DNA of 20,000 nt, taken from positions 52,824 to 72,823 of the IMG/VR virus record IMGVR_UViG_3300031414_000019; one strand, 5' to 3'. Shown in pieces: positions 1-19,984 of this stretch (the stretch's first letter is position 1; the number at the start of each line of letters is the position of its first letter). Below the pieces are notes generated by a model. That model did no database searches, was not told where the DNA came from, and was given only the letters and a program-made list of their open reading frames with translations. The translations under genes were made by a program, and so were the position numbers. Source of the DNA: an uncultured virus (IMG/VR IMGVR_UViG_3300031414_000019). Its lineage: Duplodnaviria; Heunggongvirae; Uroviricota; Caudoviricetes.

Positions 1-89
1 CACGTTACAACTTCGATATCTACTCAACCGTTGTTTCTTCTGCTACGGCCGTATTTAACGCATTCTCTAAAAAGGCCGGAGGTCAGTAA
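1..89 (+). CDS. 3' end of an upstream CDS (partial), possibly another internal head protein paralog
   Basis: Open frame from nt 3 reads RYNFDIYSTVVSSATAVFNAFSKKAGGQ*; its TAA (87-89) overlaps the next ATG (TAATG coupling). The paralog identity is inferred only from context and the amphipathic helical C-terminus. Confidence 0.6.
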   Translation, partial: RYNFDIYSTVVSSATAVFNAFSKKAGGQ

Positions 90-1318
90 TGTCTAAGAAA
101 AACATGCTCAATATTTCTGTTGAGTCCGTAGGCACCGATAACTACGATCTGGCGTCTGCTGCTGCGCCTACAGCGGTTGTCGTTCCATCTGCACCGGTAG
201 ATCCGGTTGTGCTGCCTGTTGCCCAACCACAGGGTGATGACGTAGCTCGTCTGAAAGCTATCGCTGACGCCATTGATGATGTTGCGGATACATTGGGTGC
301 TCGCGTTGCTCAGGTTGGTATTGCAACTGTCGGTGTTAACACCGTTGTTTCAACCGAAGCAATTAGTCTGGCCTCCATCGGTGCTACCGTGAAGAAATAC
401 GTGATGATGGCTATCGACTTCATCAAACGCTTCGTGGTTGCTGTTATCAATTACGGTGCTCGCTATATCGAGAAGCTTCGCTATAACCGTAAAGAGATGG
501 CCGACCTGCTGCGTGACGTTACCAACTTCATGCGTGCTCGCCGTGGCGATACCTTTACGATTGAAGGTACTTCGGTAACGCTGCTTCAGATCAACGGTGT
601 GGTTCCTGCTGGTCCTGCTGAACTGGCCCGCGCCTTCAATGAATTCCGTCGTGACGTCGATGGTCCGTATATGGACTGGCTGAAAAACGCGACTGGTAAA
701 GTTGAAGAAGTGTCCAACATCATGAACAGTATCTTCAAAGCCGAAAGCCTGTTGAAAGCTGACGCTGGTTTGTTCACTCAGCTGGAGCAGATTAAATGTG
801 CTGCTGCACCTAACGGTTGGAAACGTGACGTAAGCGTTGGATCTGGTCTGTGGTCATACGTGCCTAAGGTACCGACCTGGGGCGGCGTTCGTGTAAATGT
901 CGTAGGTGACGAAACTGTCAATGCTGCTGACGTTAGCGCATCAATGGTTTCTCCGTTCGATGCACCGGACAATGAATCAACCATCACCATCGGCGGTGAC
1001 CTGCTGACTGAATACGCTAAGCTGGGTATGGGTGTGGTTGATCTTCAGGTCAACCTGGCTGGTCCTTACGACGCAGTGCGTCAGTTGTCCAAGCGTATGC
1101 TGGATAACTACACCACCAAATTCGTAGGCGTTGACGATAAAGCGCTGACACCTACTGACCAGCAGACCATTGCTACACGCAACTCTCAGATCAACGATGC
1201 GATGGGTTATCTGTCCTTCGTGATGTCATCTACTGCTAACTACATGTCATACCTGACCGCGCTGCGTGGCGCGATTCAACAGACATTGTCTGCGGTGATT
1301 GAGCCACCTGTGGCATAA
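89..1318 (+). CDS. phiKZ-like internal head (virion) protein with cleavable propeptide
   Basis: 409 aa; GGAGG RBS at 78-82. S-x-E motifs (NISVES, VSTEA) are followed by the amphipathic helix IGATVKKYVMMAIDFIKRFVVAVINY typical of phiKZ/SPN3US inner-head paralog families. Ala/Pro/Val-rich propeptide; codon usage suggests high expression. Confidence 0.75.
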   Translation: MSKKNMLNISVESVGTDNYDLASAAAPTAVVVPSAPVDPVVLPVAQPQGDDVARLKAIADAIDDVADTLGARVAQVGIATVGVNTVVSTEAISLASIGATVKKYVMMAIDFIKRFVVAVINYGARYIEKLRYNRKEMADLLRDVTNFMRARRGDTFTIEGTSVTLLQINGVVPAGPAELARAFNEFRRDVDGPYMDWLKNATGKVEEVSNIMNSIFKAESLLKADAGLFTQLEQIKCAAAPNGWKRDVSVGSGLWSYVPKVPTWGGVRVNVVGDETVNAADVSASMVSPFDAPDNESTITIGGDLLTEYAKLGMGVVDLQVNLAGPYDAVRQLSKRMLDNYTTKFVGVDDKALTPTDQQTIATRNSQINDAMGYLSFVMSSTANYMSYLTALRGAIQQTLSAVIEPPVA

Positions 1319-1322
1319 AACT

Positions 1323-1349
1323 AGAGGGGTCCAAGTGACCCCTCTTTTT
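1323..1349 (+). terminator. Rho-independent terminator
   Basis: Stem AGAGGGGTC (1323-1331), loop CAAGT, GACCCCTCT (1337-1345), then TTTT, immediately after the stop codon. Confidence 0.85.
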
Positions 1350-1365
1350 ATTCTGGAGCTTTAGT

Positions 1366-2718
1366 ATGGATGGTTTAGAAAACCGCTCAGCAGAGCTAGA
1401 CGTGCCGCCGGGAGTTACCCCAACCGATCCAGCCAATTTGGTTACGGATAACACCCAGGGTCTCGATGATTCCATTGAAGATCCAATTGTGCGTGTGGAT
1501 ACCTCTGCATACGACTTGCGTGATTTAAATAATCGACTTGATCGTGAATTGGTGGCAGCACAAGAAATGCTGACCCGTTATTTCGCACTGGAGTCGTGGG
1601 CTACTGTAGTCGATAACTACGGTGGACCTTTAACCCCAGATATGCAGATTGGCACTGAGCTTCTGCTCGGTCTTACCACACAACGAGCCAACGTTAAAAG
1701 CGAAGATATCATCCCGTCGCTTGAGTCGTTCTCCGACGGTAAGGGTGTGGCTGGCGCTCTGCGTGCGTATGCCAAGAAACTCTTAGACGGATTGATTCGT
1801 TTGAGTAAGAAGATCACTGAGATCTTTGATAAAATCTACGAGATCCTCACCTCACGGTGTCGTGGGTCACGCCTTCAGATTGCAGCAATTAAAATTAAGA
1901 TGGGCATCGCTAAAGGCGGTCGTCTTAAGCAGCGTCGTATCGGTATGGGTCGCTATAGTCGCTTCTTGGCTGTGCGTGGCATTCCGACACAGACACCGGG
2001 TGAGATTTATGCTGGACTTGGTGCAATCGGTAAGTTGGCAGACGATGCGATCGTGTCCCACTTAGCCGGCTTATTATGGGTGGCCGATGAAGTCACGAAG
2101 ATCACCAACTCAGATAGCTTCCCTAACCCTCGCGCCACTGAAGCACGATTGACCCGTGCCTTCGCCGAGCTGGGTAAAACGTCACTAGCATCCGACTGCA
2201 CTCGTCAGGTTGGAAGTGACCCACGCTTCCAAAGTAAAGGTTACGTAACGACGGCGTCTGAGAACTTAATGGGCAACCGTACGTTATATCTTACTAAACC
2301 GCGAGATGGTAGTGAGATAGCGGACACGTTTGGTACAGTAAACTTCGAATTCACACAGACTCGTTTGGGTGATGAAGATTACGAAGCGAAAGCTGGCGCT
2401 ACGATCGAAACATGCGATCTGGCAATGTGTCGTCGTCTGTTAGAGTTGTGTGAAAAATATGTCGGTGTCATAGAACGGTTTGATACCAGTGATCCGGCGA
2501 AGAGACTTGTCTCCTCTATGGGTAAGATTCACACAGCCGTAGCCGAGCGCGCTAAGCGTGGGGGCTTAGATTCAATTAATGCCGAATTGCTTTATTCAGC
2601 ATCAGTTGCTTTCTCAGCTGCTGCCACCTCACCTATCCGAGATATCATGGGACATCTGGCAACCGCCATTGATGCTACCCTCGATGTCGTCGACCGTTCG
2701 CTTTCAGCGTACGATTAA
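1366..2718 (+). CDS. phiKZ-like internal head (virion) protein paralog
   Basis: 450 aa; GGAG RBS. Acidic N-terminal propeptide with FALES and IIPSLESF protease-type sites, followed by the helix ALRAYAKKLLDGLIRLSKKITEIFDKIYE; same architecture as the preceding gene. Confidence 0.75.
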   Translation: MDGLENRSAELDVPPGVTPTDPANLVTDNTQGLDDSIEDPIVRVDTSAYDLRDLNNRLDRELVAAQEMLTRYFALESWATVVDNYGGPLTPDMQIGTELLLGLTTQRANVKSEDIIPSLESFSDGKGVAGALRAYAKKLLDGLIRLSKKITEIFDKIYEILTSRCRGSRLQIAAIKIKMGIAKGGRLKQRRIGMGRYSRFLAVRGIPTQTPGEIYAGLGAIGKLADDAIVSHLAGLLWVADEVTKITNSDSFPNPRATEARLTRAFAELGKTSLASDCTRQVGSDPRFQSKGYVTTASENLMGNRTLYLTKPRDGSEIADTFGTVNFEFTQTRLGDEDYEAKAGATIETCDLAMCRRLLELCEKYVGVIERFDTSDPAKRLVSSMGKIHTAVAERAKRGGLDSINAELLYSASVAFSAAATSPIRDIMGHLATAIDATLDVVDRSLSAYD

Positions 2719-2741
2719 AATTTACACACTGGGGTAAAGCT

Positions 2742-3131
2742 ATGATTGATTACGAAGACCTGAAAGATCCAGGTTATAAAACTGTTACTGTCCAGGGTAT
2801 TGAACCGGAGTACGACCCTAATCACTTACCCGATGACCCAGTCAACGTAGCGGTTTCTACGTTTGTCTTTAGTGGTCTGGGTGACGATGGCTCACAGCGT
2901 GTCAAGCTTAACATCCAAACGGGTGAGTTTGCACAGGCCGGCTTTACAGGTATTCCGCCGGAAGCTGTCTTGTTAGCAATGCTGGAGCACTACAAGGGTC
3001 TGCAAGATTCTACCCTTCGCTGCAATGAGTTCCGCATGGTGGTTGATCAACTCACCGATGCAATTTCAGCACTGAAGAGCCGCAACGATCTGCGTAATTA
3101 CAAAGGTACGTACGGCACCACTAATCCGTAA
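2742..3131 (+). CDS. tad1: Tad1-family anti-defence nucleotide-signal sponge homolog (diverged)
   Basis: 129 aa. IQTG..AGFTGIPPEAVL..LEHYKGLQ..LRCNEF....L.DAI..LKSRNDLRNYKGTYGT aligns with the recalled Tad1 pattern FQxG..xGVNGITNEALL..DRLxxFQ..FxCREN....LEEALMWLxxRxxDRxxRGVEGT. Confidence 0.75.
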   Translation: MIDYEDLKDPGYKTVTVQGIEPEYDPNHLPDDPVNVAVSTFVFSGLGDDGSQRVKLNIQTGEFAQAGFTGIPPEAVLLAMLEHYKGLQDSTLRCNEFRMVVDQLTDAISALKSRNDLRNYKGTYGTTNP

Positions 3132-3149
3132 AACCCAAAGAGAGAACCT

Positions 3150-3992
3150 ATGCGTTTACAATCCCATGAAGTTAAAGTACTCAATGAAGTCGAAGCTAAA
3201 GAATCAGGCGTTGTTGATTTCGAGCTGTCTCGCGGTGATTCCACTATTTCTCTGCGTGTGGTTAATGATTTCAGCGCGGCTGTGGATAGCGTCGTGGGCG
3301 TAGTGAGCGTCGGTACTCTGATTGATGTCCTGCATCGCACTCTGCGTCTGGGCTTCCCTGTTCCCGCTACACACGCGCCTGCGTGGCGTGCTATTATTCA
3401 GAACGTCAACAACTGTAAAGAAGCGCACAACTTCAGTCAGGTTCAGGCTAACATCGAAACTGCTGAAATCGGCAAATACGACGTAGAGTTCCACATCACC
3501 AACTCTACCCCGTCACTCGATGTTGCGCAATCGCCTAAAACCGTTCGTGTAAGTGGCGACGCGTTGACCATTGATAGCTATCGTGAGCTGAGCAATCGTC
3601 TGCAACAGTATCGTCATACTCTGACGATGAACGACAACGTGCTGGAAGTTCACATGTGGGTTTCTGAAACTACCTACGGCATGGCGCAGGAACTGACTAA
3701 AGCACTGACCACGCAAGATGGTGTTTATACCATCGTAATCCGCAATGGCGAAAAGTGTGTTTACGCGCCAGTAGTTCCAACCTTCCTGGTGAGTGACTCT
3801 GGTAAGCTGATGTCTCAGATTGAGAAATCAACTAATGTCACACCTTACCCGCCAGTAAACTTCATCAGTGATCGTATTGTTTCCGTTAACGCTGAACACG
3901 ATTTCGATGCACTGAACAACGGCGTGTATCTCGCACTGACCGCGCTTGAAGCGGAGTATGAAGCTGGCAACGTAGTTGTCGAAGGCGAATAA
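3150..3992 (+). CDS. hypothetical protein
   Basis: 280 aa ORF with purine-rich leader (AAGAGAGA), strongly biased codons and a downstream hairpin; no recognised motif. Confidence 0.85.
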   Translation: MRLQSHEVKVLNEVEAKESGVVDFELSRGDSTISLRVVNDFSAAVDSVVGVVSVGTLIDVLHRTLRLGFPVPATHAPAWRAIIQNVNNCKEAHNFSQVQANIETAEIGKYDVEFHITNSTPSLDVAQSPKTVRVSGDALTIDSYRELSNRLQQYRHTLTMNDNVLEVHMWVSETTYGMAQELTKALTTQDGVYTIVIRNGEKCVYAPVVPTFLVSDSGKLMSQIEKSTNVTPYPPVNFISDRIVSVNAEHDFDALNNGVYLALTALEAEYEAGNVVVEGE

Positions 3993-4010
3993 AACGTAGC
4001 ATGCTGATGC

Positions 4011-4046
4011 CCTCTAGAGAGCCTTGTGCTCTCTAGAGGCTTCTAT
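4011..4046 (+). terminator. terminator-like hairpin
   Basis: 12-bp perfect stem CCTCTAGAGAGC (4011-4022), loop CTTGT, GCTCTCTAGAGG (4028-4039); weak U-tract (CTTCTAT). Confidence 0.7.
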
Positions 4047-4101
4047 GCCGTCAGTCCGATAATATGACAAGTACCTACTTTATTCATGCGAGGGCACTAC
4101 T

Positions 4102-5646
4102 ATGCCTGCTGTAGTTAAAACAATCGCTGAGACCACACAGGCAATCACCAGGCCAGTGGTTATCGGGGCGATAGATATCCTGAAGCAATATACCGGTATC
4201 AAGAGCAACGTGGAGGTTCAGGTCTTTACCAACTCCAATGCCGCTGCTCTACCGGGAACGCAGATTAACACCGGTTCAGGTGATGACCGTCGGTTTGATG
4301 CCCATGAGAAAATCAAAGCAGATTACACCGAAGAGTACGACGATACCGATGCGTTAACCGCCACAACCAACTGGCGTGATAACGTTCCTATCTTCCTGGA
4401 CGAACCCCTGCAAATCTTTCTTCGTCCCATCTACGTAAAAGCTAAGGTCGATTTACGTATTGAGTATCGCTTTAGTAATGAAGCCGCTGCTCAGCGATGG
4501 TTGGCAGATATCCGTACGTATGTCAGTATGGAACGCGCTGAGCTACCGATGGAGCTACAGTACAGTTACCAGATCCCTCCCGCACAGCTAGTCATCCTTG
4601 CGCATCTCCACGAGTTGCGTGAGAACGTCGCTGGGTATGGTCAGACGTTTACTGAGTACCTTCGTGAAAAGTTTGACGATCGTGTTACGGTTGAGAAAAC
4701 CAATGGCGAGAAAGGGCATCAGTTTAGCGTGCAGGAACGACAGGGTGGAATTGTTGGCTGGTTCGACTTTACCATGCCTCCACAACCTGAACGCAACGAC
4801 TCCAATGGGACATGGATAGCGCAGTTCGGCTTCACCTTCGTTTACGACAAGCCTATCTCGATGATGTTTAACTATCCGGTTATGATACACAACCAGATTG
4901 TTGACGCGCGTTATCGTAAAGACCCAACGCCATATACACTTACCGAGAAACGACTGATGAATATTTCTCGTCGTGCGTACGAGAAACTTCCATTTACTCG
5001 ACCTCGTGAATGGCAACATCCGATTGGTGGTATTGTTGTTCCGAGCTATGACGACTGGGCACCAGGGGATTTCGATCGTTCGACAACAAGTGTCTTTACC
5101 ACCATTGTCATGGTCGATAGTGACGACCCGTATCAGATTGCAAACCTTCAGGACTTAGGTCGCTGGGAGATCAACCCGGTATTGCTTGAGTGGATCAAAG
5201 AGAACAAGAAGAGCATGTTTAAAACAAGCATGTCTCCATTCGTTATCGAGTTTTACTCAGAGAACTCCCGTTGGACACCAGAAGCATTGTACCTGGACGA
5301 ATCCCTTAACCTGCGCTCTGTAACGCCTCTCAGTGAACGTCAACGTCACCACCTGAGATTTGCTATGGTCTCTGATCTATCTGCCCTCTCAGAGCCGTAC
5401 GCTCGCAAATTGCGTGAGACTGGTAAGGTTTGCCTGGAAGTATTAAAGATTGTCGATCCAAGTCTCGAAGCCAGGGGATACCTTCCTCGCCTTCGTGGTG
5501 GGAAGATGGTTGCTCCGTTGGATTGGTCTAAGGCGTTGAGTGCAATTGGCACTACTGACCCGACCTGGAAGACCCGACCTGAGTATCGCCGTATGACAGT
5601 CGGACAGTTTATCTTCTACACTGGAGATCCAAATGCCAACATTTGA
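4102..5646 (+). CDS. conserved phiKZ-like virion structural (probable baseplate) protein
   Basis: 514 aa; GAGGG RBS. Motifs ITRPVV, PIFLD, FSVQERQ..IVGWFDF, YPVMIHNQ and PSYDDW resemble conserved jumbo-phage structural proteins (SPN3US gp61-like, recalled from memory). Confidence 0.65.
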   Translation: MPAVVKTIAETTQAITRPVVIGAIDILKQYTGIKSNVEVQVFTNSNAAALPGTQINTGSGDDRRFDAHEKIKADYTEEYDDTDALTATTNWRDNVPIFLDEPLQIFLRPIYVKAKVDLRIEYRFSNEAAAQRWLADIRTYVSMERAELPMELQYSYQIPPAQLVILAHLHELRENVAGYGQTFTEYLREKFDDRVTVEKTNGEKGHQFSVQERQGGIVGWFDFTMPPQPERNDSNGTWIAQFGFTFVYDKPISMMFNYPVMIHNQIVDARYRKDPTPYTLTEKRLMNISRRAYEKLPFTRPREWQHPIGGIVVPSYDDWAPGDFDRSTTSVFTTIVMVDSDDPYQIANLQDLGRWEINPVLLEWIKENKKSMFKTSMSPFVIEFYSENSRWTPEALYLDESLNLRSVTPLSERQRHHLRFAMVSDLSALSEPYARKLRETGKVCLEVLKIVDPSLEARGYLPRLRGGKMVAPLDWSKALSAIGTTDPTWKTRPEYRRMTVGQFIFYTGDPNANI

Positions 5647-7027
5647 TGAAGACTACAGCGGGAAGCCAAAACCCGTTGTACCTAAACCTCAGACGAAACC
5701 CAACCCTAAGCCGCTCAGTAAGCCGTATCAGGATATTAAGGTCGACTCTCGCCTGTTTCCGAAGTCAGCCATCATTGCGCACATTGAAGGTTCGCAGTGG
5801 TACCCTGAACGATACTACAGCCAGATCTTAGCCGGTGGAAACAACCCGGTTCCGTTTAGCATCGACCTACCTGCGGTATCTCAACAGTATAACCGTATTG
5901 ACCGGTTGGAGTTCCGCGTGCAGGAGCCGCTGTCTAACAGCTTCCGCAACGGCGAGAATGAATTCGAGGTTCGTGGTTCATCTGTAATCTACGCCGGGAT
6001 AGTTCCGAACGTACACGATCTGTTCCTTGTTGATATCGGCGATGGGAAAATGGGTCGCTTCGAGATCACTGAGGTCACGCCTAAGTCTTACTTACAGGCC
6101 GCTGTCTATGAGGTCTCCTATAAACTCATCGACTATTTAACGCCGGCCGTCTCTGCCAACTTAGAGACCAAGACCAACGAAGTAAGTCGCTACGTCCGTG
6201 ATCAGTATCTGGCCGGCCGCCGTGGCGTGTTGTTGGAACAGGAGTATACGCAGTACGAAGAGATGAAACGTCTCCTCGCTACGCTGCCGGGTGAGTACTA
6301 TCGTGAGTTCTACTCTCGTGAGTTTCACACCCTTCTGATCCCGTCGCAGTCTGAAGCCATCTACGATTCTTTTGTTGTAGCGTTCCTGAAAAGAATCCTG
6401 GATGTTTCTGACCACAGCTGGCTTGCTAATATCCATGAGTTGAATGTTGACTTGGGTTTCAACGATAACATCACCACGCTGTTTGATGCTGCATTAAACA
6501 GTGATGAGACTATCCTCGATCGTTGTTACTCGAACATCCAACCTGTCGACTCTAGCTATTTCCGCACCCAGGCCCTCTATGCAAACATTGCGTTTAGCGG
6601 CATTGAAACCACGATGTATCCCGTTGGGATCAAAGTGAACCAGGGTGCGTGGGAAAGTACGGTGGCGTCCAAGTTCAAACTGAACCTGGGTCCTAACGTG
6701 CAGCTGAACCGCAAGGTCTCCATGGATGAAGCATTTAGCCGAACCAAGATGGACGAAGTTCCTGGTACACTGGGCGGATCTACTGAGTGGATTTCTGATG
6801 AGATTATCAAAGAGAGTTACATTTTCTCTAAGGCATTCTATCAGAACCTGGACAGTCAGTCTGCGCTGGAACAGATGTTCCGTTCTGCGGTGCGTGGTAA
6901 GTTCTGTGATTCAGCGATGATCATTAAAGCATGCAACGATCGTGTATTGTGGACATCCACAACGCGTTTCTATTACATGCCTATTCTGTTCTATATCCTG
7001 CGGGTTGCATTAATCAACGTGAGTTAA
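5633..7027 (+). CDS. conserved phiKZ-like virion structural (probable baseplate) protein
   Basis: 464 aa, overlapping the previous stop, GGAG RBS. Motifs HIEGSQW..YYSQ, QQYNRI, PNVHDLFLVDIGDG, YEVSY and FYYMPIL match the recalled SPN3US gp62-like family. Pro/Lys-rich N-terminus. Confidence 0.65.
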   Translation: MPTFDEDYSGKPKPVVPKPQTKPNPKPLSKPYQDIKVDSRLFPKSAIIAHIEGSQWYPERYYSQILAGGNNPVPFSIDLPAVSQQYNRIDRLEFRVQEPLSNSFRNGENEFEVRGSSVIYAGIVPNVHDLFLVDIGDGKMGRFEITEVTPKSYLQAAVYEVSYKLIDYLTPAVSANLETKTNEVSRYVRDQYLAGRRGVLLEQEYTQYEEMKRLLATLPGEYYREFYSREFHTLLIPSQSEAIYDSFVVAFLKRILDVSDHSWLANIHELNVDLGFNDNITTLFDAALNSDETILDRCYSNIQPVDSSYFRTQALYANIAFSGIETTMYPVGIKVNQGAWESTVASKFKLNLGPNVQLNRKVSMDEAFSRTKMDEVPGTLGGSTEWISDEIIKESYIFSKAFYQNLDSQSALEQMFRSAVRGKFCDSAMIIKACNDRVLWTSTTRFYYMPILFYILRVALINVS

Positions 7028-7031
7028 GTCT

Positions 7032-7625
7032 ATGAATGTCGATAGAGAGTCAACAGGCTATAAACTGTTTAAGCAGATCTTTCATTGCAGGGTAAAGGCC
7101 AAGCACTTAATCGACGTTAAGGAAGCGGCTGAATTTGGCTTACCTAGCACTGGGGATGACCAGTATGACGCTGAGTTGGGTGAGGTGTGGAATGATATTT
7201 ATATTCCCACCTCCGATATCGCAGAGTTGATCAACGATGGCGCTGATGTCATCATCGTGTCGCTAGAGGACGCGGCCAAGATCTACGAACTGATACAGGC
7301 ACATCTCGAATGGTGGGAAGACCAGTTCCGTTCTAGCTTCTATTTCAAACCAGATCGGTTGAAGCGGGTTAAACGCGATATCGAACTGTTGAGTCGTGTT
7401 GCAGGCGGGTTATTCCCAATGGTTGAAACGTACGTGCGCAAAGAGGACAAACACCTCACCGCTCGTGACGATTCTATCATGCCGTTCATTCCAGAAGGGG
7501 ATACCTACACCCTCGACCAGACAGACCTGGGTCGTTACGATCCAAGTATTGTTAAGGAACACCGAAGCCTCGACGACATCATCGATACTAAGGTGTTGGA
7601 TCGCGTAAGAATCTGGGAGCGTTAA
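7032..7625 (+). CDS. conserved jumbo-phage hypothetical protein
   Basis: 197 aa in tight operon spacing. Motifs FGLPSTGD..YD and KIYELIQAHLEWW are recalled from phiKZ-like genes lying just upstream of the baseplate hub gene. Confidence 0.7.
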   Translation: MNVDRESTGYKLFKQIFHCRVKAKHLIDVKEAAEFGLPSTGDDQYDAELGEVWNDIYIPTSDIAELINDGADVIIVSLEDAAKIYELIQAHLEWWEDQFRSSFYFKPDRLKRVKRDIELLSRVAGGLFPMVETYVRKEDKHLTARDDSIMPFIPEGDTYTLDQTDLGRYDPSIVKEHRSLDDIIDTKVLDRVRIWER

Positions 7626-7626
7626 C

Positions 7627-8997
7627 ATGCGAATAGAAGGTACCGCACTTTACGCTGACATTGCGATGATCATGGAAGATAAATCGCAACCTACCCACTT
7701 TCGGTTCGACATCTTTGTACGTGGCGGTGGCCAACAAGTCATCGCCATGAAAATGGTGTCGTTGGATGAGCAGCGCGATTATCGGTCAAGCTACGGTGAC
7801 AACACAACGTTAATAGCGTTATTTGTAGAGAGCGATTACGATGCAGTTATCCTCCCTAACGCTAAAGACCTGGAAGTGATGATCACCAAAACTCGAGTGG
7901 GGCGTCCTACCTCTCGCAATGCTGACCAATCGTTCAATGCCGTAACGTATCGCTATAAAGCGACGTTGGTAGACGTCACGGTGCCTGAGGTCGGTGAAGC
8001 TAACTTGAATAGCTACGATAAAAGTAATGCCATGCGTAGCGTTACATTCCAGTTAATCGACCGGGCGCTGTACCAATTGCGACTGACAACAGTAGGTGGT
8101 ATTTTCAGGGCAACCACAGCTGGTGATGTCTTGAACACCTTGTTAACCGCAAAATCTCAGAACCTTGAGATTGACGAGGCTGTAAAACCACTCGGTGTTG
8201 AGATGGTTATTCCGGATACCGCACTAAAGGCAGACGGAAAGCCAAACCTCAGAGAGCATGTCATTGTGAAGAGCGGGTTACCTCTCTTTGACTTGGCGGG
8301 TTACTTGCAAAAGCACTGCGGTGGTATTTACAACAACGGGATCGGTTGTTATTACACAAATCGCATCTGGTATACGTACCCACTCTACGATAACTCCAGG
8401 TTCGATAAGTCACCAAGGACGCTGACTATTATTCGTGTTCCGGCCGACGCCATGCCCGATGTCGACCATAGCTACACGATGTTAGGAAACCATCTCTTTG
8501 TGTTAGCGACAGATGAAGCTATCTCCGTTGACCAAACAGACCATCATCAGTTAAATAGTGGTAATGCTAAGGTATTCCCCACCGCCACTGGTATAATGGA
8601 TAAATACGTGCCTGTAGACGATTCTGCCGGGTTTTCTTCTGAGAGTGATATCTTGGGCAGGATTTCTGTAGCGGATCGTCCTGATGGCTTAAACAGCGCA
8701 CAGTTTGATGTTTCTCGTGTTACGGATAACACGGCACTGATGATATCCGAGCTAGCGAAGAATACACAACAGCTTATGCAGTTTGGCTGGGGCTATTCCA
8801 ACCCTGCTCTTCTTTACCCTGGGATGCCAACCAGAGTGCTATACAACAAAGGTGGCGTAATCGAAACTTTACAAGGTACGCTCGTGGGGGGCGATAGCTT
8901 TACAGAGCTTGCAGCTCCGGGCATGACTACTGTCCACTATCAGACAAAAACCGCCCTGACCGTACTTGTTTCTAAACCGCCGGAGAAACGCGCTTAG
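7627..8997 (+). CDS. virion structural protein, probable baseplate hub (T4 gp27/VgrG-like; phiKZ gp101-like)
   Basis: 456 aa. Motifs RDYRSSYGD, VTFQLID..LYQLRL, YLQKHCGGIYNNGIG.Y...WYTYPLYD and W.YSNP.LLYPGMP resemble the conserved phiKZ-like hub family. The fold assignment is recalled/inferred. Confidence 0.6.
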   Translation: MRIEGTALYADIAMIMEDKSQPTHFRFDIFVRGGGQQVIAMKMVSLDEQRDYRSSYGDNTTLIALFVESDYDAVILPNAKDLEVMITKTRVGRPTSRNADQSFNAVTYRYKATLVDVTVPEVGEANLNSYDKSNAMRSVTFQLIDRALYQLRLTTVGGIFRATTAGDVLNTLLTAKSQNLEIDEAVKPLGVEMVIPDTALKADGKPNLREHVIVKSGLPLFDLAGYLQKHCGGIYNNGIGCYYTNRIWYTYPLYDNSRFDKSPRTLTIIRVPADAMPDVDHSYTMLGNHLFVLATDEAISVDQTDHHQLNSGNAKVFPTATGIMDKYVPVDDSAGFSSESDILGRISVADRPDGLNSAQFDVSRVTDNTALMISELAKNTQQLMQFGWGYSNPALLYPGMPTRVLYNKGGVIETLQGTLVGGDSFTELAAPGMTTVHYQTKTALTVLVSKPPEKRA

Positions 8998-12191: not shown

Positions 12192-12701
12192 ATGTCGATT
12201 CGCAGAACGCTTATTGTTGGGGATGGTCACGTTTCCCACAAAAACATCTGTCGACAACGTACGCGCTTTAAAACAGTAGCTGAACACGATGAGTTTTTCT
12301 GGGACCTACTCGCCCCGTTAAACCATCGCGATCAGTTAATCATGGCTGGCGATATGTTCTTTACTCGCGAGTCGTTGTACAAATTGAAGAAGTATCCGTT
12401 TCGTAAAATCCTGGTCATTGGCAATCACTGCACAGATCACGAACCCGACGCGAGAGACTTGGTCGAAGTGTACGACGACGTCGTGGAGAGCAAGAAGCGT
12501 AATCATTTCCTGATTACGCATTCGCCTCGCCATCCGTTAGCGCTACGCAGTCGAATCAATGTCCACGCTCATATGCACGAAACGATTATTCGGGACGAGC
12601 GTTACATCAATATCTCCCTAGAAGCTACTGGGTTCAGACTCGTAGACTTTGAAGAGATTCGTTCCGGTGAGTATCGGACTTTCAGAGGTAAGAACGCATG
12701 A
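12192..12701 (+). CDS. calcineurin-like metallophosphoesterase
   Basis: 169 aa with all five motifs in order: GDGH (DxH), AGD, GNH, THSP and HAHMH. Confidence 0.9.
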   Translation: MSIRRTLIVGDGHVSHKNICRQRTRFKTVAEHDEFFWDLLAPLNHRDQLIMAGDMFFTRESLYKLKKYPFRKILVIGNHCTDHEPDARDLVEVYDDVVESKKRNHFLITHSPRHPLALRSRINVHAHMHETIIRDERYINISLEATGFRLVDFEEIRSGEYRTFRGKNA

Positions 12702-14708: not shown

Positions 14709-15275
14709 ATGATTCATGCGATTGTGGCCTGGCGTAAAGGCGATCACGGTATTGGTTTCGAAAACAAACTGCCATGGCGCATTCCGTCAGACCTTAAGCA
14801 CTTTAAGGAAATGACACAGGGTTGCTCAGTGGTCATGGGCTATAACACCATGCTCTCGCTGGGTAAACCACTGCCAGGCAGAAAGAACTACGTGTTGACC
14901 CGTTTTAAAGAGCGCGATCTCCCTGAAGGTTTCATCGGTGTGCAGATGGTTCAGGGTCTTCGTGACTTCATGGCTATTGTCGGCAAACGTGAAGATCTTT
15001 GGGTAATCGGCGGGGCTAAGACCTATGAGATCTTAGCTGAGTACGTTGATGCCTGGGTCGTAACCGAAGTTGATGCATCTGACGTTCAGTGCGACGCGTT
15101 TGTAACTCCGCCGGACTTTACTGGCTGGGAAACGTACGACCGCGATGTCGTTCCGTCTGAAAAGGATGAGTTCCCATACACCATCCGATATTACCTGTCA
15201 CCCAATGCAGTCATTGAGCTGGGTGATCATCGCATGGCGGTGAGTGACTTCTCATTCCCGCTTAAACCAGTCTAA
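14709..15275 (+). CDS. folA: dihydrofolate reductase
   Basis: AIVA, GIGFENKLPWRIPSDLKHFK, VVMGYNT, KPLPGRKNYVLTR, VIGGAKTY and CDAF are all canonical DHFR motifs. Confidence 0.95.
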   Translation: MIHAIVAWRKGDHGIGFENKLPWRIPSDLKHFKEMTQGCSVVMGYNTMLSLGKPLPGRKNYVLTRFKERDLPEGFIGVQMVQGLRDFMAIVGKREDLWVIGGAKTYEILAEYVDAWVVTEVDASDVQCDAFVTPPDFTGWETYDRDVVPSEKDEFPYTIRYYLSPNAVIELGDHRMAVSDFSFPLKPV

Positions 15276-18415: not shown

Positions 18416-19984
18416 TTAAGCTGCGGCTGAGAAGTCCATCCAACCCGAGCCACCACCTTCTGCGTTTGTGTTACCAGCAACACGTCTACGCGACATGTCA
18501 GGCCCACCAACGTCTTCGGGAATACCCAAGACAGGGTGGAACTTGTAAACGCAGTACAAGTCTTCTTCTTTCGTAATACCCACCTTACGGTGTTTACCAC
18601 GCTGGATAGTCAGGTAAGACACACCATCAACTTTCTCAATGTGAATGAGAAGCTCAAGGTCGACTTCCTGGTCGATTACACGACAACCATCCCAATAGCC
18701 TTTGTTAGCGATTTCTTTAACAAAGGACTCAGTACCATTACGCAGTAAGTTCTTCGCTTCAGAACTGATCTGATGCGGTGTGAGCACAGTAATGCCGCGT
18801 GGGTTACAGTAGTTACGAACACGACGGAACAAGTCACGTACGTCCGTACCCGTAGCACCAGTCACACAACCTTCTTTCGACATCATATTCAGATAGTCGA
18901 TTGTCATCAAGTGAATCTCATATCCCTGAGACTCGTACTTGGCTAACAGGTTGAATAGTTTCTGGTAGTTGAACATACTTGGGTTGACACGCAGCATTTT
19001 AACTGTGTAACCCGTACGTTCCAGATGACGTTTAACGTACTCTGCAATTTCAGCATAAAGCTCAGGAGAATTCTTAGCACGCTCAGACAGGTCGGTGATC
19101 TCAAGTTTCTCACCGGTCTCTTGTGCTTTCAACGTTACGTAGATTTGGATAACGTTGTCTTTGACGGAGTTCTCTGTGGAGATATGAAGGATCAGTGGCT
19201 TCTTACTCGGGTCACGCATGTACGGTGTTGCGTTCATCGCGATCTGACGTGTTAAGTCAAGAGTAAAGCCCGTTTTAAAGTTGTGCTGTAGTGCGCCAAC
19301 AACAATGAAGTCGCCACGACGGAATCCGCTGTACTCACCCATCATGCGGTTGAGTCCCTGCCAACGAGTATGCATAATACCTTCGGTGCCGGATTCTTCC
19401 AGACCACGTCGGATAGCATCTGTCAGTGTAGAAACCTGGGTCGTATCGATCTCATCAACAATAGCCCCATCGGTTGCTTCGAACCGCTGGCCGCTAAATG
19501 GTTCCAGTTCACCTTTGAACTGTGACATGAAAGTAGACCAGTTAATACTTTCTTCATCGAAGGCTAACTGAGAACTATATTTCTTAACGATAGATTTTAT
19601 GTCTTCACGCTCTTTATAAGCGTACAGGTCGTTGCGGTGTTCTTCACACTGCGTTTTGATATACTCTGGGGTTTCTTCGTGCTCCAATGCTGCCTCAATG
19701 ACAGTCATCAGACCAGGTTCCTGAGACACGTTCACACGCAAACGTTGCAGCAAAGCTGCTTTATCGTATGTATGAGCATGTGATTGCTCAGCCATCCATG
19801 CTGCTGTGGACTTCAATCCATTCAGTGCATCAGTGATGGTTTCCGACCCAAAGCCATTGTCGACAGTTTTAATCTTCGACAGCAGTTCCTTTACTAAAGA
19901 AGCTGAGTTGTCTATCGGGTTCGGCACGCGGGATTCCCAATAGAGTAACATGATGCATTTGAATAAAACGAGTTTAGTATCCAT
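18416..19984 (-). CDS. dnaB: DnaB-like (SF4) replicative helicase, phiKZ gp118-type
   Basis: 522 aa. TRWQGLNRMMG..GFRRGD (H1 lead-in), variant Walker A GALQHNFKT, ISTEN (H1a), IDYLN (Walker B), TPHQIS (H3), IDQEVD and QRGKHR. Inverted orientation matches what I recall for phiKZ-like genomes. Confidence 0.9.
   Translation of the reverse strand: MDTKLVLFKCIMLLYWESRVPNPIDNSASLVKELLSKIKTVDNGFGSETITDALNGLKSTAAWMAEQSHAHTYDKAALLQRLRVNVSQEPGLMTVIEAALEHEETPEYIKTQCEEHRNDLYAYKEREDIKSIVKKYSSQLAFDEESINWSTFMSQFKGELEPFSGQRFEATDGAIVDEIDTTQVSTLTDAIRRGLEESGTEGIMHTRWQGLNRMMGEYSGFRRGDFIVVGALQHNFKTGFTLDLTRQIAMNATPYMRDPSKKPLILHISTENSVKDNVIQIYVTLKAQETGEKLEITDLSERAKNSPELYAEIAEYVKRHLERTGYTVKMLRVNPSMFNYQKLFNLLAKYESQGYEIHLMTIDYLNMMSKEGCVTGATGTDVRDLFRRVRNYCNPRGITVLTPHQISSEAKNLLRNGTESFVKEIANKGYWDGCRVIDQEVDLELLIHIEKVDGVSYLTIQRGKHRKVGITKEEDLYCVYKFHPVLGIPEDVGGPDMSRRRVAGNTNAEGGGSGWMDFSAAA

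Follow-up and report, generated by a model that had tools for sequence, protein, structure and literature searches.

The final 20 kb of a 72.8-kb record of an uncultured virus of the Caudoviricetes (IMG/VR IMGVR_UViG_3300031414_000019, positions 52,824 to 72,823; a linear fragment that CheckV estimates to be 27% complete) carry a small gene at 2742–3131; these 20,000 nucleotides are referred to here as the window. A first-pass annotation, made from the letters and the open reading frames of the window, proposed that the product of this gene (P0001) is a diverged member of the Tad1 (Thoeris anti-defence 1) family of nucleotide sponges with a rewired binding pocket, either binding a different immune messenger or repurposed. 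The locus raises the question of whether P0001 is a Tad1 protein at all and, if it is, what has become of its pocket. The product is a real but very diverged Tad1 homologue. Judged from its sequence and that of its relatives, it is best described as a variant derived from Tad1 whose pocket is remodelled and conserved, and its gene lies in a jumbo-phage head operon. The reading that we favour, with a probability of about one half, is a Tad1-fold homodimer with rebuilt pockets that would still sequester a phosphate-bearing nucleotide immune signal with changed specificity, and that is perhaps packaged.

The gene and the parts of its product are:

2742–3131, + strand: Tad1-like gene, ATG start, TAA stop, 129 residues (P0001).
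2731–2735, + strand: GGGGT, Shine-Dalgarno-like as read from the sequence, with GGGG at 2731–2734, 7 nt before the ATG.
2742–2915, + strand: N-terminal beta-sheet half, residues 1–58, with strands 2–4, 16–20, 40–46 and 52–58 (DSSP on the AlphaFold2 model); NVAVS at residues 35–39 stands in place of the canonical GNAxH loop.
2958–3005, + strand: helix alpha1, residues 73–88, with H83 (CbTad1 R78), L87 (F82) and the invariant Q88.
3024–3101, + strand: helix alpha2, residues 95–120, with N95 (R90), F97 (N92), D102 (T97), A110 (W105), R114 (R109), N115 and R118 (R113).
3102–3128, + strand: C-terminal tail, residues 121–129, the counterpart of the CbTad1 ligand lid (116–122).

In the alignment A37 of the NVAVS loop occupies a conserved alanine column and S39 the column of CbTad1 H29, and in the tail G122-T-Y124-G125-T126 replaces the canonical G-V-E-G-T.

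When P0001 was compared with 177,635 Protein Data Bank (PDB) sequences by phmmer just two proteins were matched: CmTad1 (8kbb), to which residues 56–127 align without a gap at an expect value (E) of 8.4e-5, and gp184 of phage phiKZ (8y6v chain I; E 5e-4). The relatives of P0001 considered below as a clade comprise eight sequences: P0001 itself, 3 close relatives, 3 full-length relatives at 44–54% identity from an exhaustive search, and a protein of phage pEa_SNUABM_54. A profile built from this clade alone matched 8kbb at E 6.6e-10 and gp184 at E 3e-8, and a comparison by hhalign of 7 clade sequences with 44 canonical Tad1-like ones gave a probability of 99.1% and E 1.3e-18 over columns 31–128. 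The best PHROG for P0001 is phrog_2428 (E 5.7e-8), which SBSphiJ7 Tad1 matches at 8e-47. The eleven-residue Tad1 pattern from which the first-pass annotation had argued (Q59, G61, G70, E74, Q88, C94, E96, R114, R118, G125 and T126) stands, every residue being invariant or at least 90% conserved in an alignment of 17 sequences, 9 of them from outside the clade (alignment A1). The ungapped C-terminal match that it had described was also recovered, but the homology is not confined to the last 70 or so residues as had been supposed; it runs from about residue 31 to 128, and the fold match extends over the whole protein. Overall identity is low, at 21–22% to CmTad1 and 14–16% to CbTad1 in structural alignments.

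Other searches show how far the clade has diverged. With P0001 alone as query, a near-length word-index search reached the 3 close relatives only, the wider family being reached by profile search; window positions 1–8000 gave no megablast match in the phage collection, and NCBIfam has no family for P0001. PF24729, the Acb2/Tad1 hairpin model, matches SBSphiJ7 Tad1 at 2.9e-8 and gave no match to P0001, P0005, P0006 or P0007 even at E ≤ 10. The failure with P0001 is not decisive, since phiKZ gp184, which is described in print as Tad1, is likewise missed by PF24729 at E ≤ 10; the model is too narrow and misses jumbo-phage Tad1 proteins. It found nothing either in the record of the window or in the complete pEa_SNUABM_54 genome, and thus no additional Tad1 of canonical type in either, a result to be read with the fact that the clade gene itself escapes it.

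Residues 11–96 of P0001 (window 2772–3029) also draw matches, in several stretches each, to giant Ig-like (Big_13) repeat proteins of bacteria, for example P0008 (2,217 residues, 7 stretches, E 7.7e-14). These probably arise from a beta-strand and Asp/Pro-rich pattern common to both, multiplied by the repeats. Seven such long proteins with Ig repeats, RCC1 or other multiple domains (P0008–11, 14, 15 and 17), which match the N-terminal half in 3–7 stretches in the exhaustive single-sequence search, were judged to be repeat or composition artefacts after a Pfam scan and were excluded from all alignments.

The AlphaFold2 model of P0001, built on a 119-row alignment, has a mean predicted local distance difference test score (pLDDT) of 93.5 and a predicted template modelling score (pTM) of 0.82. 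Four strands are followed by two long helices, and the prediction thus has the N-terminal antiparallel sheet and the two long C-terminal helices of the Tad1 fold. Foldseek against the PDB returned 20 matches at E ≤ 0.001, all of them CmTad1 or CbTad1 chains (template modelling score 0.60–0.80; best E 3.7e-7), and the first match beyond Tad1 came at E 0.49. Profile and structure comparison, which the first-pass annotation had named as the way to check its family call, therefore both point to Tad1. Furthermore, two copies of P0001 were predicted to form a head-to-tail interlocked homodimer with an ipSAE (interaction prediction score from aligned errors) of 0.88, compared with 0.00 for the best of 3 controls; among proteins of solved structure, 20 of 30 pairs and 1 of 23 single chains reach the ipSAE mark used. 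The dimer runs share at least 96% of their contacts, and the partner pLDDT is at least 88. The predicted interface takes in the pocket-equivalent residues 37–39, 63, 83, 87, 92, 114, 124 and 127, and the N-terminus belongs both to the predicted fold and to the interface. The assignment of P0001 to Tad1 is thus supported by sequence, profile, predicted fold and predicted dimer.

What the pocket does in canonical Tad1 has been described for CbTad1 and CmTad1. According to Li et al. (10.1101/2023.11.15.567273), F82, N92, R109 and R113 of CbTad1 form the pocket for glycocyclic ADP-ribose (gcADPR) and cyclic dinucleotides, and R90 and T97 bind the phosphates of cyclic trinucleotides, both as the first-pass annotation had correctly stated; substitutions in the two sites are reported there for 12% and 6% of Tad1 orthologues. 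Leavitt et al. (10.1101/2022.05.03.490397) describe 11 contacts of CbTad1 with gcADPR: F82, R109, N92, R57, R113, G120, F87, H29, G55, R78 and N122. F82 and R109 stack on either side of the adenine, and N92 reads its Hoogsteen edge; R57, R109 and R113 hold the diphosphate together with the backbone of R57 and G120; the ribose is buttressed by F87; and H29, G55 (through its amide), R78 and N122 make one contact apiece to free hydroxyls of the ribose-ribose linkage. Residues 116–122 are the lid that closes over the ligand, and L119 of the lid sandwiches the second base of 2'3'-cGAMP (cyclic GMP-AMP; Li et al.).

The positions in P0001 that had been proposed as equivalent (F82 to L87, R90 to N95, N92 to F97, T97 to D102 and W105 to A110) hold in A1, in a second alignment of 7 clade rows and 112 canonical rows (A3), and in the CbTad1 numbering of Hadary et al. 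(PMC12393519, Table S2); for comparison with CmTad1, 8kbb chain numbering is that of Li et al. plus 10. The mapping of the two kept arginines (R109 to R114, R113 to R118) and of GGAYH (25–29) to NVAVS (35–39) was confirmed as well. The clade and the canonical rows of A3 compare as follows:

F97 (CbTad1 N92): N in 112/112 canonical rows; F or Y in 7/7 clade rows.
Y124 (lid): E in 112/112 canonical rows; Y in 7/7 clade rows.
N115: T in 111/112 canonical rows; N in 7/7 clade rows.
H83 (CbTad1 R78): R in 111/112 canonical rows; H in 6 clade rows, Y in 1.
F63 (CbTad1 R57 position): I in 108/112 canonical rows; F in 7/7 clade rows.
S39 (CbTad1 H29): H in 101/112 canonical rows; S in 5 clade rows, H in 1, Y in 1.
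L87 (CbTad1 F82): F in 109/112 canonical rows; L, M or Y in the clade.

Four of the 11 gcADPR contacts are identical in P0001, namely the two arginines (R114 and R118) and two backbone glycines (G61 and G125); two are conservative (L87 and L92) and five are changed (F97, F63, S39, H83 and T127). In the sequence, everything specific to the reading of gcADPR is gone, and the phosphate and stacking arginines remain. The new residues are conserved within the clade. Over its eight sequences, the 12 pocket-equivalent positions have a mean entropy of 0.586 versus 1.093 for all positions (P = 0.007 against random 12-position sets), R118 is found in all eight and R114 in seven. We take this to mean that selection maintains the pocket in a new form.

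The trinucleotide site presents a different picture. The 8 positions of this site and of the hexamer interface have a mean entropy of 1.382 in the same eight sequences (P = 0.86). As aligned, none of the 8 CmTad1 hexamer-interface residues is kept in P0001 (N95, D102, Q103, T105, D106, S109, A110 and S113), and N95 and D102 stand in the places of the R90/T97 pair (CmTad1 R88/T95); the trinucleotide site and the hexamer contact are read as lost in the clade. Since the gcADPR contacts are conserved only in part and the R90/T97 pair of the trinucleotide site is replaced, P0001 should not be filed as a functional gcADPR/trinucleotide sponge. The idea of a rewired pocket is supported by the clade-conserved changes at N92, R78, H29, the R57 position and the lid glutamate, but the changes at R90, T97 and the tryptophan, which the first-pass annotation had stressed, are not distinctive, these positions varying across the family. 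In the 9 non-clade sequences of A1 the R90 position is R, K, E, Q or D, the T97 position T, N, H, D, R or E, and the tryptophan position W or A; gp184 has E, N and A at the three.

In a FastTree tree of 125 sequences the clade is monophyletic with a support of 1.0. No branch of this tree is longer than the stem of the clade (1.6 versus a median of 0.12), and midpoint rooting sets the clade opposite all 117 other sequences. Set beside the solved proteins (SBSphiJ7 Tad1, CbTad1 and CmTad1; PDB 7UAV/7UAW, 8KBB–8KBH, 8SMD), P0001 shares the fold, about the same length, the predicted interlocked dimer, both pocket arginines and the motifs Q59, G61, G67, G70, E74, Q88, C94, E96, R114, R118, G125 and T126; it differs in N92 to F, R78 to H, H29 to S, lid E to Y, I or R57 to F, and R90/T97 to N/D.

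Pfam joins Acb2 (anti-CBASS 2) and Tad1 through the shared helical hairpin PF24729, and both are oligomeric nucleotide sponges. Acb2 has, to our knowledge, no N-terminal beta-sheet, and no Acb2 structure was among the significant Foldseek matches of P0001. In 19 rows of Table S2 of Hadary et al. (PMC12393519) Acb2 is 62–97 residues long, compared with 129 for P0001; Li et al. liken the trinucleotide binding of Tad1 to that of Acb2.

The genes around P0001 are those of a phiKZ-like jumbo phage, and several of them match conserved jumbo-phage PHROGs. The surrounding features are:

89–1318, + strand: 409-residue protein belonging to this block, which resembles phiKZ_IP below the threshold only (PF12699, E 0.17).
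1323–1345, + strand: terminator-like hairpin from a consensus scan, a perfect 9-bp GC-rich stem followed by TTTTATT; it reads as terminator-like on both strands.
1366–2718, + strand: phiKZ-type internal head (inner body) protein, 450 residues (PF12699 E 4e-15; PHROG annotation 'internal head protein').
3150–3992, + strand: 280-residue protein of no family, its position conserved in the two related phages.
4102–5646, + strand: 514-residue conserved jumbo-phage protein (phrog_3289, E 5.9e-105).
5633–7027, + strand: virion protein with head-tail joining domains (PF24214 1.5e-46, PF24215 1.2e-49; phrog_3013 'virion structural protein').
12192–12701: phosphoesterase (phrog_547, 6e-38).
14709–15275: dihydrofolate reductase (phrog_316, 3.6e-39).
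18416–19984, – strand: DnaB-like helicase (phrog_3213, 1.2e-169).

The last three mark the switch from structural to metabolism and replication modules. The internal-head-protein gene ends 23 nt upstream of the Tad1-like start, and the consensus scan found no terminator-like hairpin between the two; the hairpin at 1323–1345, the only strong one nearby, separates the 409-residue gene from the internal-head-protein gene. Among cultured phages the nearest is Erwinia phage pEa_SNUABM_54 (272.6 kb), whose gene 00008 encodes a protein 49.6% identical to P0001 in the same place. The window, the related record L007 (78% identity) and pEa_SNUABM_54 share one order: internal head protein paralogues, the Tad1-like gene, and then the genes for the 280-residue, 514-residue and head-tail joining proteins. 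Gene context was covered for these 3 phages, the more distant members P0005–P0007 lying outside the comparison; related-locus searches turned up no more than two records, the same pair in viral and in metagenome contigs, of which one is identical and the other at 78%. The phiKZ paralogues of PF12699 belong to the inner body and undergo proteolysis, packaging and injection (10.1101/2024.03.24.586471).

A virion-delivered Tad1 in a jumbo phage is already known. phiKZ gp184 is one of the minor capsid proteins in the vertex-binding complex (PMC11297242); it has been called Tad1 in two papers that both cite Li et al. 2024, Nature, and according to these its N-terminus is wedged in the capsid and its C-terminal part is freed by the head protease and injected (10.1101/2025.11.23.690004; PMC13282480). 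Like P0001, gp184 is a Tad1 domain in a phiKZ-like jumbo phage, encoded beside virion genes and unmatched by PF24729, and both have alanine for the interface tryptophan and lack the R90/T97 pair (E/N in gp184). Unlike P0001, gp184 (PDB 8Y6V; L004:5554-6246) has 230 residues, including an N-terminal extension of about 100 residues that sits in the capsid and is cut off by the head protease, and it keeps N92 and the lid glutamate. Its gene follows those of the tail lysin gp181–183, a position not equivalent to that of the P0001 gene. We dropped the notion that the capsid map shows the Tad1 domain of gp184; the P0001 model has no 8y6v match in Foldseek, and it is the N-termini that are wedged according to 10.1101/2025.11.23.690004.

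Two observations stand beside this comparison. All 8 clade members carry [S/A/G]-x-[E/D] at alignment positions 19–21 (GIE, GIE, GVE, GVE, SED, SYE, ASD and SED; the G-I-E of P0001 lies at window 2796–2804). The cleavage motif of the phiKZ head protease is S/A/G-X-E, which the triplet resembles; it was rejected as evidence of such a site, being 3 residues long and inside a predicted strand. Further, Tad1 homologues of Herelleviridae infecting the Bacillus cereus group are labelled 'putative structural protein' by similarity to Bc431v3 orf166, and should virion proteomics underlie that label, the association of Tad1 with virions could extend beyond the jumbo phages. One of these homologues, gene 171 of Bacillus phage BCP8-2 (L003:3887-4267), is flanked by a DNA polymerase III subunit gene on one side and a recA-like gene on the other, that is, it lies among replication genes and not, as for P0001, in a head operon.

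In the favoured reading P0001 would act as a homodimer in which each protomer has an N-terminal antiparallel sheet and two long helices that interlock head to tail, with two inter-protomer pockets retained but rebuilt. The two kept arginines would stack on a base and hold phosphate as they do in Tad1, and the readers of the adenine Hoogsteen edge and of the ribose-ribose linkage are replaced by the aromatic or smaller F97, F63, Y124, H83, S39 and T127. With the trinucleotide site and hexamer interface apparently gone, the protein is probably a dimer instead of a hexamer. Its most likely function would be to sequester a phosphate-bearing nucleotide immune signal, with a specificity expected to exclude gcADPR in its canonical mode and also cyclic triadenylate (cA3) and cyclic AMP-AMP-GMP (cAAG). 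That P0001 binds a different messenger is something we infer, and our best guess at the ligand would be a cyclic dinucleotide or an untested signal. Because the gene is co-oriented and tightly packed with inner-body protein genes, P0001 is probably made late together with virion proteins, and it may enter the capsid and be delivered together with the DNA in the manner of phiKZ gp184/Tad1.

Several points weigh against this reading. The bulky hydrophobic residues F63, F97 and Y124, together with the lost polar contacts, might just as well occupy the cavity and prevent binding. The clade is thinly sampled, with 8 sequences of which 4 are 78–100% identical, and one member, P0006, has V for the first arginine; the 112 canonical rows were the top scorers among 3,989 profile hits and do not represent a random sample. 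The predicted dimer may owe its score to the model's memory of solved Tad1 dimers. P0001, at 129 residues, does not have a capsid-anchoring N-terminal extension of the gp184 type, so that its packaging is only suggested by gene position. Nor is the lid tyrosine unique: a GVYGT group of 84 rows in Table S1 of Hadary et al. (PMC12393519) has it and keeps CREN. Since the tested member of that group, number 46, is reported as positive on type I Thoeris and on the cGAMP CBASS (cyclic-oligonucleotide-based anti-phage signalling system) of E. albertii in liquid and plaque assays, the lid tyrosine alone is without effect on function.

It is possible, though in our view unlikely, that P0001 is a functionally ordinary Tad1 which sequesters gcADPR and/or cGAMP-type dinucleotides in the same pocket, the arginine pair and a hydrophobic stacking platform being enough. 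R114 and R118 are indeed kept and L87 and L92 are conservative; homologues vary widely in their pocket loops and dinucleotide spectra with function kept (Li et al.), the lid-tyrosine homologue just described inhibits type I Thoeris and cGAMP CBASS, and Hadary et al. (PMC12393519) report that diverse Tad1 homologues commonly act against CBASS and type I Thoeris. However, the position of N92 is asparagine in every canonical row and in gp184, and the F82A/N92A double mutation in CbTad1 severely reduces the binding of both gcADPR and cGAMP (10.1101/2023.11.15.567273). The linkage readers R78 and H29 are replaced in 7/7 and 6/7 clade rows of A3, and the combination of changes occurs in no homologue tested in Table S2 of Hadary et al.

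Alternatively, the Tad1 fold may have lost ligand binding, and this jumbo-phage lineage may have recruited it to serve as a virion or inner-body component or to do something else. The gene sits within a conserved head and inner-body block in 3/3 phages with context, the hydrophobic residues that replace the polar ligand readers could fill the cavity, PF24729 is unmatched, and a long stem branch such as that of the clade is expected after a change of function. We nevertheless give this explanation poor odds: the pocket-equivalent positions are the best conserved in the clade and both arginines persist, for which there is no easy explanation unless a phosphate ligand is bound. Around the pocket the loop motifs (QxG, Q88, C94, E96 and G125-T126) are all kept, gp184 also fails PF24729, and the contact with the phiKZ capsid is made by an N-terminal extension and not by the Tad1 domain, the P0001 model having no 8y6v fold match. 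Finally, a chance or compositional resemblance in an unrelated reading frame, for which the attraction of part of P0001 to long Ig-repeat proteins in the single-sequence search might speak, is refuted by hhalign and by a Foldseek list in which five orders of magnitude in E separate the 20 Tad1 matches from the next, all family-invariant residues also being present.

Part of this material is already public. Hadary et al. 2025 (PMC12393519) collected 2,953 Tad1 homologue entries, and the exact P0001 protein is in the sheet homologs_Tad1 of their Table S1, where motif searches find the clade as 3 rows. None of the 18 tested Tad1 homologues and 2 controls of their Table S2 carries the clade signature, and no paper describing the clade or its pocket was found in the literature searched, most subscription journals being outside its coverage. 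A 2026 review (PMC13282480) describes Tad1 as so far the only anti-defence protein reported from these jumbo phages.

The favoured reading of P0001 as a sponge of changed specificity has a bolder form, in which P0001 would be a dimeric sponge of the inner-body operon, with an aromatic-rich pocket for a signal that no known Tad1 binds, loaded into the capsid by some means other than a gp184-type anchor and injected with the DNA. We regard this as quite improbable. If it were true, the sponge would be present before any phage gene is expressed, and the signal would possibly be one not yet described. Were P0001 instead to bind the usual ligands or nothing, it would simply be a diverged member of the family. 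Sponge proteins have served to discover immune signals (Hadary et al. PMC12393519), and the clade is a concrete candidate for a changed or unknown ligand, since its arginines appear to be under selection while every side chain that reads gcADPR is replaced. The position of the gene among inner-body genes also bears on how widely pre-packaged anti-defence proteins have spread in jumbo phages.

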